Translations under genes and position numbers: made by a program | Shown: positions 12,374 through 13,006 of the stretch, piece by piece | Layout of the letters: each line of letters starts with the position of its first letter | Numbering within the stretch: position 1 is the stretch's first letter | Notes under the pieces: generated by a model | Seen by the model: the letters and a program-made list of their open reading frames with translations, nothing else | What the model was told of the DNA's origin: nothing | Databases searched by the model: none | UHGV virus genome: UHGV-1682877 | Reading direction: 5' to 3' (one strand) | Length of the DNA stretch: 64,000 nt | Source: a virus

Positions 12374-13006
12374 ATGAGTTATATTTATAGAATTATTAAT
12401 AATATAAACGATAAGGTTTATATTGGAAAAACTGCTTTTGATATTTCAAAACGATTCAAAGAGCATTGTAATGATGCTTTTAAGAAAACAGAAGAAAAAA
12501 GACCATTATATGCGGCAATGCGTAAATATGGGATAAAGCATTTTACAATAGAACAAATTGAAGAGTGCTCTGACGCTGCGGCCGTAGACAGAGAAGCCTA
12601 TTGGATTAGTATGTATTCTGCTTATGAAAAAGGATATAATGCGACTCTTGGTGGCGATGGTAAATTTTTATATGACCACAAAGCAATTGCTTTGCGACTT
12701 CAAGAACATCCATATTCTCAAGATGTAGCAAAGGAGTTTGGATGTTGTGTTGATACAGTAAGAAATATTGCTAATCAATATGGTATTTCATTATTAGTCA
12801 ATAATAGCCATAAAAAAACTATTTCTGCTTATAGTAAAAACGGTGTTTTAATAAAAACTTTTGAATCTACCTCAGAAGCAGCTCAGTGGTGTTATGATAA
12901 TCAAAAATGTGCCACTTTGCACTCTGGTGTTAGAAGCCATATAGCACAATGTGCTAATGGGATTCGTAAATCTGCATATAGTTATATATGGAAATATGAA
13001 AATTAA
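12374..13006 (+). CDS. GIY-YIG homing endonuclease
   Basis: YIYRIINNINDKVYIGKT ... R..EH GIY-YIG core; embedded in tRNA island. Confidence 0.7.
   Translation: MSYIYRIINNINDKVYIGKTAFDISKRFKEHCNDAFKKTEEKRPLYAAMRKYGIKHFTIEQIEECSDAAAVDREAYWISMYSAYEKGYNATLGGDGKFLYDHKAIALRLQEHPYSQDVAKEFGCCVDTVRNIANQYGISLLVNNSHKKTISAYSKNGVLIKTFESTSEAAQWCYDNQKCATLHSGVRSHIAQCANGIRKSAYSYIWKYEN

Follow-up and report, generated by a model that had tools for sequence, protein, structure and literature searches.

The locus described here is a gene for a GIY-YIG homing endonuclease that lies in the tRNA island of a gut phage, at positions 12374–13006 (plus strand) of a 64,000-nucleotide (nt) stretch of UHGV virus genome UHGV-1682877, and that is preceded by a predicted ribozyme. 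The whole 64,000-nt stretch is referred to below as the window. Insertion of a free-standing homing endonuclease gene (HEG) into a useful gene harms the host genome, a problem that introns and inteins solve by splicing. R2 and other non-long-terminal-repeat retrotransposons carry a 5' ribozyme like that of hepatitis delta virus (HDV), which cuts the element free of host RNA. The likeness to R2 lies in a mobile element that occupies a structural-RNA gene, is co-transcribed with it and has a ribozyme at its 5' junction. However, R2 is a eukaryotic retroelement in 28S rDNA that moves via RNA, whereas the present element would be a DNA-level cassette in phage tRNA genes. The gene for I-TevI lies within a self-splicing group I intron in a protein-coding gene, while the window HEG is free-standing at a tRNA 3' end. 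SegB of phage T4, like the window HEG, is the product of a free-standing GIY-YIG gene inside a phage tRNA island. It has been shown biochemically to recognise the T-psi-C motif GGTTCRANTCC together with a degenerate stretch, prefers, when CCAR is present, to cut immediately after CCAR at the tRNA 3' end, and drives inheritance of the T4 tRNA region (PMC2330249). In T6, escape from Septu comes about through an amplification of tRNA-Tyr that SegB promotes, and homologues of SegB are found in excess close to tRNAs (PMC13096335). Theta ribozymes are minimal HDV-like ribozymes of ~56 nt that abut tRNA 3' ends in gut Caudoviricetes; four have been shown to self-cleave, and only 4.5% of the associated tRNAs have an encoded CCA (Kienbeck et al. 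2024, PMC10879173).

The window combines features of these systems in the order 3' part of a tRNA-Phe, tRNA-Met lacking CCA, 54-nt theta ribozyme, structured leader and HEG. Sequence comparisons suggest, with a probability of roughly 0.7, that positions 12127–13008 are a horizontally acquired cassette, brought in by intron-less homing of a free-standing GIY-YIG endonuclease that targets phage tRNA 3' ends. In co-infecting relatives the enzyme would cut the allele without HEG, close to or at the discriminator/CCA end of a tRNA gene, in the manner of SegB. The break would be repaired from the HEG-carrying genome, so that ribozyme and HEG are copied in and variable lengths of flanking tRNA are co-converted. 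In the window the left crossover would have been illegitimate, at a GGCAG microhomology, destroying the resident tRNA-Met and leaving a truncated tRNA-Phe. Insertion of this kind would part a tRNA from its encoded CCA and 3' trailer. The ribozyme, however, is predicted to cleave the co-transcript between 12251 and 12252, which would leave the tRNA with a defined 3' end, to which CCA could be added, and free the HEG mRNA with a 5'-OH. The insertion would thereby be cheap for the phage, as a self-splicing intron makes it for intron-encoded HEGs, and translation of the HEG would probably be held low by a hairpin over its Shine-Dalgarno site. The locus is an element of an ordinary kind, a SegB-like free-standing HEG, in an unusually informative state.

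Empty and filled insertion sites

Related loci were obtained by way of a flanking protein, a DNA pattern from the tRNA-Met and protein look-ups; scans of IMG/VR for close relatives of the HEG and for the exact leader CTCCATAATATAATGGAGG returned no match. One relative, L001, is an IMG/VR contig of 137.7 kb that is 95–98% identical to the window over 18 kb and lacks window positions 12135–13008. It has 59 nt in their place, which complete an intact tRNA-Met(CAT) at 6550–6622 (ARAGORN). The window retains 9 nt of the 5' acceptor strand of this resident gene (TGCAGGCAG, 12123–12131, plus strand). This remnant is fused to a truncated, foreign tRNA-Phe(GAA)-like gene (12127–12177, plus strand) at GGCAG (12127–12131), a microhomology common to the resident tRNA-Met and the donor tRNA-Phe. 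The tRNA-Phe-like piece covers two-thirds of a gene on the 3' side, starting with the anticodon stem and including the encoded CCA, with the anticodon mutated from GAA to AAA, and the Rfam tRNA model gives only 21 bits over this region. A 91-nt Rfam 'tRNA' at 12084–12174 (21 bits) was rejected: it arises from chance pairing between the truncated tRNA-Phe and spacer sequence that L001 also has. Next comes an imported tRNA-Met(CAT), here called type A (12179–12251, plus strand), which is recognised by ARAGORN and by Rfam (48 bits), folds as a cloverleaf and has no encoded CCA.

The block 12127–12251 (125 nt) is 92–93% identical to the intact tRNA-Phe/tRNA-Met doublet of the L002–L005 clade, while the other shared island tRNAs of that clade are 73–85% identical to those of the window. 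Judged by these identities, the Phe/Met block, including the tRNA-Met upstream of the HEG, is foreign in origin. At the right junction (13007–13027, plus strand) homology to L001 resumes at 13009, three bases past the HEG stop, and the flank is 98–100% identical over ~900 nt. A copy of AGACTCATACAGCAA, a motif that is repeated in the island, lies at 13013–13027 and could have supplied the right-hand homology. As both truncated genes are in the window and the whole gene is in L001, the state of the window is the derived one. The arrangement is confirmed by independent assemblies: L009 has the HEG at 98% identity, and L010 and L011 have it in a frameshifted form. In addition, a third phage type with a 21-tRNA island (L012–L014), when compared with window positions 9001–16000, shows homology only over 12149–12997 (74.6% identity). 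The initial annotation, made from the window sequence, proposed that the HEG marks the island as a site of rearrangement driven by a mobile element and may explain degraded tRNA-like fragments nearby, and it suggested a comparison of tRNA island gene order in related phages. That comparison agrees with both proposals: L001 lacks the cassette and has an intact, different tRNA-Met at the site, and the fragment in the window is the truncated foreign tRNA-Phe joined to the 9-nt remnant. The theta ribozyme between tRNA and HEG and the imported status of the upstream tRNA-Met were overlooked at that stage.

Filled and empty alleles are also found in other phages. L019–L021 (filled) and L002–L005 (empty) have the common synteny Phe-Met-(site)-tRNA(t)gtt-Ser-Thr-Arg-His. 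The empty site of L002–L005 reads CTCTCGCAA/CC/ATAGGCG, in the wider context ...GGTTCGACTCCACCCTCTCGCAA/CC/ATAGGCGTAATGCC. The filled site of L019–L021 reads ...CGACCGCAA/GGAGCATA...HEG...TTAAT/ATAGGCGTAACGCC and has, in order, a different tRNA-Met, the ribozyme and the HEG. The replacement of the tRNA-Met by a different variant indicates co-conversion. A second cassette in L020 (460–1151) consists of 692 nt comprising a theta ribozyme and a gene for a GIY-YIG protein of 203 amino acids. It lies exactly between GGGAGTA, the 3' end of tRNA-Glu(ttc) including the discriminator, and the CCA-side sequence CCATTAAC; L005 and L019 are empty at this site (GGGAGTA/CCATTAAC). The empty site of L001 reads GGTTCGATTCCAAAGTCTGCATCCAT/ATAGAC, and CTCTCGCAGAGACATAATCAAC is an example of a junction pattern. 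Together, these empty and filled junctions place the cassette at the discriminator/CCA boundary of tRNA genes. The pairs window/L001 and L019–L021/L002–L005 differ in the presence of the cassette at one locus and show co-conversion of flanks, and the tRNA-Glu site is polymorphic between L020 and both L005 and L019. Where the HEG is at least 60% identical to that of the window, the order is tRNA-Met, ribozyme and HEG, and the gene starts 123–130 nt after the tRNA-Met in all loci examined. For more distant homologues (36–52% identity), 58 of 80 IMG/VR loci have a same-strand tRNA, of many isotypes, at most 250 nt upstream.

Both kinds of empty site, L001-type and L005-type, carry GGTTCGAYTCC ... 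GCA-N-CCAT, and the position after CCAR at which SegB cuts is where the present cassettes are inserted. By position of insertion, and by analogy, the window enzyme would behave like SegB. In both systems homing carries neighbouring tRNA genes along, although for the window this is inferred by comparison. The analogy to the seg genes of T4 tRNA clusters that was drawn at the outset therefore stands as far as setting is concerned, as SegB lies among tRNAs and its cut site matches the cassette position, but the window HEG is not a SegB orthologue. Orthology was rejected because the similarity is confined to the catalytic domain and is not full-length (BLASTP, 30% identity over 111 residues; hhalign, 98 columns aligned). 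An I-TevI-type R27/H31 motif is kept in the window HEG and was not found by alignment in SegB, and the C-terminal region of the window protein has no detectable similarity to SegB. The surroundings also differ: segB lies between tRNA-Ile and tRNA-Arg with a gap of 41 nt after the upstream tRNA, which is too short for a ribozyme of ~55 nt, and none is annotated there.

Endonuclease, ribozyme and leader

The HEG belongs to a 215-codon frame at 12359–13006 (plus strand), of which the stop codon, TAA, occupies 13004–13006. The start at 12374 given in the initial annotation is the second ATG of this frame; GGAGG (12361–12365) lies 8 nt upstream, and the MSYIYK start used by most homologues is the same one. 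The product of 210 amino acids has profile, residue and fold matches to GIY-YIG enzymes. It matches Pfam GIY-YIG (PF01541) with 47.6 bits against a cutoff of 22.6 (E 2e-12), NCBIfam TIGR01453 ('group I intron endonuclease') with 71.8 bits against a cutoff of 56.05, and PHROG homing-endonuclease families with E values of 1e-22 to 2.5e-26. Its sole sequence relatives among solved structures are the entries for the catalytic domain of I-TevI, 1MK0 and 1LN0. Residues Y5, Y16, G18, R27, H31, E74 and N89 align with I-TevI Y6, Y17, G19, R27, H31, E75 and N90, and all seven are invariant across 33 homologues (58–80% identity). An AlphaFold model built on the homologue alignment (mean predicted local distance difference test score, pLDDT, of 85.7) matches 1LN0 and 1MK0 in Foldseek with target-normalised template modelling scores of 0.82–0.85. 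The root-mean-square deviation is ~2 Å for 1LN0 and 4.1 Å for 1MK0.

In the model the catalytic domain (residues 1 to ~92) is followed by a low-pLDDT linker (92–97) and by C-terminal units that are confidently folded. The first of these consists of three helices (~102–135) and resembles a helix-turn-helix (HTH) domain, with a sub-threshold match to HTH_28 (E 0.002). The second (~149–209) is a beta-beta-alpha-alpha-beta unit that resembles NUMOD1/IENR1, with a sub-threshold match to NUMOD1 (E 0.055). The C-terminal region also gives a weak structural match to I-HmuI (Foldseek probability 0.82). No zinc-finger family was found in the linker by the general Pfam scan, and no zinc-finger-directed test was made. 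The catalytic domain is thus that of I-TevI in sequence and fold, with all catalytic residues present. The modular build of I-TevI, with catalytic domain, flexible linker and C-terminal DNA-binding units, may have a counterpart in the window HEG, whose candidate DNA-binding units weakly resemble HTH and NUMOD1. The frame at 12374–13006 is predicted to encode an intact GIY-YIG homing endonuclease. Domain, catalytic residues, fold match and the absence of a group I intron from the Rfam results agree with its first description as a free-standing GIY-YIG endonuclease, and the catalytic residues singled out for inspection at that time are all found. Its position between tRNA-Met and the next tRNA is likewise upheld by ARAGORN and Rfam, which place tRNAs at 12179–12251 and 13040–13112.

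HEG homologues of several other phages contain an in-frame TAG (e.g. L012, 3085–3087) where the window has a sense codon. The islands with such homologues carry a suppressor tRNA with a cta anticodon; no suppressor tRNA was seen in the window. These phages appear to be stop-codon-recoded.

The spacer of 122 nt between the tRNA-Met, which ends at 12251, and the HEG start contains a predicted minimal HDV-like theta ribozyme of 54 nt (12252–12305, plus strand). It was recognised when the spacers of distant homologues were aligned. A hairpin stands right after the tRNA; its stem varies in sequence with complementarity kept, and its loop contains ACCTCCACGTGG, which is followed by TGGGTAATGCTAA. 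The exact core CCTCCACGTGG occurs once per locus in the 20 fetched loci that carry it, regardless of the upstream tRNA, and lies 30–102 nt upstream of the HEG start in the loci measured. A nested double pseudoknot results from pairing of the segment that separates the 5' stem arm from the loop motif with the bases that follow GCTAA. A first reading of ACCTCCACGTGG as an anti-Shine-Dalgarno sequence or a protein-binding palindrome was dropped, because distant members keep the motif without GGAGG and its flanks form the double pseudoknot.

The window element can be parsed as GAGACAT-AA-TCAACC-ACC-T-CC-ACGC-GGT-ATGTCTT-GG-GTAAAG-CGAAC-GGTTGA. P1 would be formed by 12252–58 with 12280–86, with a G12252.U12286 pair at its base, and is followed by J1/2 (12259–60). 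P2 pairs 12261–66 with 12300–05, and P3 pairs 12267–69 with 12277–79 around L3 (12270–76). P1.1 joins C12271–72 to G12287–88, L4 occupies 12289–94, and J4/2 (12295–99) begins with the candidate catalytic cytosine, C12295. The published theta parse is P1-J-P2-ACC-T-CC-ACGT-GGT-P1'-GG-GTAACG-CTAA-P2' (PMC10879173 supplement), and the CCTCCACGCGG core occurs 42 times in that supplement. The published motif has a P1 of 7 bp from G+1, a short J1/2, P2, a P3 of ACC/GGT, an L3 of U-CC-ACGY, a P1.1 of CC/GG, a short L4 and a J4/2 starting with C (PMC10879173). The window ribozyme fits it element by element. Cleavage is predicted between A12251 and G12252, which coincides with the boundary between the Rfam tRNA end (12251) and the ribozyme start (12252), and the adjacent tRNA has no encoded CCA.

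In a narrow scan the whole of Rfam RF02682 (HDV-F-prausnitzii) matches 12252–12305 with 19.7 bits (E 0.048) and P4 absent; this model includes a P4 helix that minimal ribozymes do not have. No theta-specific family was returned by the Rfam scans. A covariance model was built from the ribozymes and used for their alignment, as a MAFFT alignment was out of register in the 5' arms. This model has a single match in the window, at 12252–12307 (42 bits, E 3e-6). Covariation was assessed on 31 unique ribozymes upstream of HEG homologues, parsed by structure and compared with swapped-partner controls. Each of the 29 distinct P1 arms forms 7/7 pairs with its own partner, against means of 3.6 for swapped partners and 5.3 for a search-matched control. 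All 24 distinct arms of P2, the pseudoknot helix, pair fully, against 42% for swapped partners. In the covariance-model alignment (P1 and P3) 98.2% of cells are paired, compared with 69% when shuffled and 32–52% in slid controls. All seven P1 pairs change on both sides, with a covariation score of 0.84 against 0.23 that none of 500 shuffles reaches. These alignments are fitted to or parsed by structure, a bias that the slid and swapped controls address. On this evidence the 54-nt element is a minimal HDV-like theta ribozyme, with self-cleavage predicted. It shares with the described examples the length of ~55 nt, the motif, the G+1 directly after a tRNA 3' end, the tRNA without encoded CCA and a gut-phage setting, here with a probable Bacillota host and an encoded RNA ligase that weakly matches the DRB0094 family. 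In contrast, Kienbeck et al. treat theta ribozymes as tRNA-maturation or recoding elements, whereas here the ribozyme is the 5' module of an HEG cassette and comes and goes with the HEG.

The leader between ribozyme and HEG contains two hairpins. The first, TTTTGGGTAC ... GTAGCCAAAA (12310–12343, plus strand), has been conserved across the closest HEG subfamily, where some of its changes are compensatory. It is overlapped by a weak promoter-like site, TTGAAT-17-GATAAT (12302–12330; 9/12), the only such site in the spacer. The second, CTCCAT-N6-ATGGAG (12347–12365, plus strand), pairs 12347–52 with 12359–64 in the predicted fold. Its stem is invariant in the window, L012, L015, L017, L019, L213 and L215, so that there is no covariation to test. 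This hairpin would sequester the Shine-Dalgarno sequence GGAGG of the HEG, and a role in translational control is inferred from the fold. Hiding of the Shine-Dalgarno site in a hairpin resembles the translational restraint of T4 HEGs. The strong extended -10 promoters (10/12 or 11/12) are all further upstream, at 10552, 11344 and 11607. As the HEG has no strong promoter of its own, it is probably co-transcribed with the tRNAs.

Ribozyme–HEG linkage and alternative explanations

The ribozyme and the HEG are gained or lost together in all three filled/empty pairs, the empty alleles having neither. The order of the two parts and the distance between them are constant across HEGs down to 40% identity and behind at least eight upstream tRNA types. 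An HEG-blind scan of IMG/VR for the ribozyme core found 110 stretches, of which 72 have at least 700 nt downstream; in 24 of these 72 (33%) a homologue of the window HEG follows within 175 nt. Ribozyme and HEG would accordingly be a frequent, not an obligatory, composite. HEGs in tRNA islands and theta ribozymes are each known, and the linkage of the two appears unreported. The literature consulted yielded no report that combines HDV-like ribozyme, homing endonuclease and tRNA, and endonuclease, homing and GIY-YIG are unmentioned in the main text of the theta-ribozyme paper (PMC10879173). A broader proposal, offered tentatively and as a good deal more doubtful than the acquisition of the cassette itself, is that theta ribozymes have joined with this GIY-YIG family in a composite selfish element. 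The ribozyme would take the role of the intron, so that the endonuclease could enter any phage tRNA gene at its discriminator/CCA boundary and leave the tRNA active. HEG homing might then be a major route by which theta ribozymes and whole tRNA genes spread between gut-phage islands, and many orphan theta ribozymes and CCA-less tRNAs might be footprints of past HEG invasions.

Several observations weigh against acquisition of the cassette by homing or against the proposed role of the ribozyme. A donor with intact tRNA-Phe, type-A tRNA-Met and HEG was not found among the relatives; in P0002 and P0003, the nearest HEG relatives, the upstream tRNAs are Met-Met-Met instead of Phe-Met. For the species of the window itself L001 is the only empty-site genome, and the HEG cleavage site is deduced from insertion points alone. 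Compared with the HEG-less allele, the type-A tRNA-Met is short of one A at the 3' end (CGCA/G against CGCAA/CCA), so it may be missing its discriminator and its 3' end may be defective. The RF02682 score of 19.7 bits is far under the gathering score of 44. For 48 of the 72 ribozyme cores no such HEG follows, and the next feature is a tRNA or unrelated small open reading frames (ORFs). L001 has a ribozyme-only insertion of 54 nt between tRNA-Ser(tga) and tRNA-Gly (15162–15218; 41 bits with the covariance model), where the window (21766/21767) has only CCA and 4 nt. Finally, the ribozyme was undetected by pattern search in 52 of 91 loci of more distant HEG homologues, and some homologues start 18–41 nt after the upstream tRNA, leaving no room for one. 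HEGs without ribozyme and ribozymes without HEG indicate that the two parts can exist apart.

The last group of observations is what would be expected if HEG and ribozyme were independent, the theta ribozyme being an ordinary tRNA 3'-processing element downstream of which HEGs land or survive without functional coupling. The many cores followed by a tRNA or assorted small ORFs, the ribozyme-only difference between L001 and the window at tRNA-Ser(tga) and the many homologues that closely follow a tRNA without a ribozyme all fit this explanation. It nevertheless seems unlikely, since the empty allele lacks both parts in each of the three pairs, the insertion boundaries enclose both, the unit inserted in L020 is exactly ribozyme plus HEG, and spacing and order hold across divergent HEGs and tRNA types.

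A second alternative is that the nuclease is kept mainly for the benefit of the phage, by excluding the tRNA islands of rival phages or by amplifying tRNA or anti-defence genes, with homing secondary. SegB offers a precedent through tRNA-Tyr amplification against Septu and the enrichment of its homologues near tRNAs (PMC13096335), and the window ORF is intact with invariant catalytic residues. However, the window shows no sign of amplification. In L010 and L011 an A7 run of the HEG has gained one A, and the protein is cut off after residue 147; this frameshift is the decay expected of a selfish gene and suggests that the HEG is dispensable. A benefit of this kind is compatible with homing of the cassette rather than opposed to it, and as the main reason for keeping the nuclease it is rather improbable.

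Ordinary recombination between divergent tRNA islands, or a deletion in L001, with the endonuclease uninvolved and perhaps an inactive passenger, is very improbable. Repeats in the island (five copies of AGACNCATACAGCAA and repeated promoters) could support recombination, and a single empty genome represents the species of the window. Against this, islands that are otherwise unrelated carry the same cassette at sites of the same kind, and conservation extends to every catalytic residue. A deletion in L001 cannot explain the difference, as its tRNA-Met is complete and the first 9 nt of that gene are still in the window. Location of the HEG within a group I intron, itself inserted in a tRNA gene, as the NCBIfam family name and the intron-encoded nearest solved relative I-TevI might imply, can be dismissed: Rfam finds no group I intron at E<=1 in 10500–14400, no 3' tRNA half follows the HEG after 13006, and the RNA element beside it has the make-up of an HDV-like ribozyme, not of an intron core.

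The phage, its tRNA island and the significance of the cassette

The window is part of an AT-rich gut phage of ~135 kb. Its GC content is 30.5%, and near-identical contigs of 130–138 kb come from gut metagenomes. It encodes topoisomerase II subunits, a large DNA polymerase, NrdD, a RecJ-like nuclease, DnaB, DNA ligase, RNA ligase and SLH-domain proteins. To judge from strong Shine-Dalgarno sites, TGnTATAAT promoters and SLH domains, the host probably belongs to the Bacillota. No GenBank phage similar at the DNA level was found by megablast of the island (10500–14400). The RNA ligase and calcineurin-like phosphoesterases, at 25760–28699 and 372–1094, are candidates for RNA end-healing and sealing functions. 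The ligase marginally meets the Pfam RNA_ligase cutoff and matches TIGR02306 (DRB0094 family) weakly, with 33.8 bits against a cutoff of 151. The DRB0094 family is enriched in theta-ribozyme phages (Kienbeck et al. 2024, PMC10879173).

A CCA is encoded by 15 of the 17 tRNAs in the window; the two exceptions include the tRNA-Met next to the HEG. The next tRNA after the HEG (13040–13112; Rfam tRNA, 53 bits) also has no encoded CCA and has an anticodon loop of 8 nt (CUUGAAAA), its anticodon being given as 'tgaa' by ARAGORN. L009 and L010 retain the 8-nt loop, with a compensatory change in the anticodon stem from TTACC/GGTAA to TCACT/AGTGA, so this tRNA appears to be under selection. Other tRNAs with 8-nt loops ('tgtt' and 'taaa') occur in related phages. 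The tRNA at 13040–13112 may be Phe-type or frameshift-prone.

The motif AGACNCATACAGCAA occurs five times just downstream of tRNA genes (11483, 12049, 13013, 13406 and 21187), compared with a chance expectation of 0.38, and is also present in related phages; one copy is found at the right-hand end of the HEG cassette. The motif might act as a signal for processing or provide homology for recombination. The island is punctuated by promoter-like sites at 10552–10580, 11344–11372 and 11607–11635 (TTGAnn-17-TATAAT, with TG before the -10 and 10–11/12 consensus positions), and the promoter block is 95% identical in the otherwise diverged L002–L005 clade. Positions 11489–11596 weakly match the Y RNA-like family YrlA in Rfam (26.6 bits against a gathering score of 69) and contain the T-arm-like GCAGGTTCGATTCCTGT. 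An ORF at 22735–24258 matches a PHROG 'RNA-binding protein' family (DUF2828/DUF7788). Instead of a degraded tRNA, the region 11489–11596 may hold a non-coding RNA that is tRNA-like.

Further indels or replacements between the window and L001 are found at 9893–10174, 11221–11330 and 18698–20809, the last of which spans a radical-SAM ORF (18794–20053) and has a different sequence in L001. L010 and L011 have a 486-nt insert (989–1474, corresponding to window 10849/10850) directly after the anticodon of tRNA-Ile(tat). It encodes a PD-(D/E)XK endonuclease of 147 amino acids (PF11645, E 2e-30), and its ends form a 7-bp inverted repeat, TTACGTT/AACGTAA. The tRNA-Ile with this insert has no ARAGORN call, and Rfam shows no group I intron there. 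This could represent a split or killed tRNA, or an unusual small intron. ORFs similar to this endonuclease occur in the tRNA islands of L017 and L213.

Beside the splicing used by introns and inteins, the evidence points to a third solution to the cost of insertion, in which a 5' self-cleaving ribozyme is predicted to restore the 3' end of the invaded tRNA. In practical terms the cassettes may offer compact natural pairs of a putative tRNA-end-specific nuclease and a putative fast ribozyme. Should the coupling be incidental, the locus would still be a clean, datable case of SegB-like intron-less homing that overwrote a tRNA gene. If the coupling is real, it would give theta ribozymes an evolutionary origin and a means of spread, and would explain why the tRNAs associated with them lack CCA. 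The tRNA islands of gut phages, including the suppressor tRNAs used in stop-codon recoding, would then be cargo that is moved between phages by homing.

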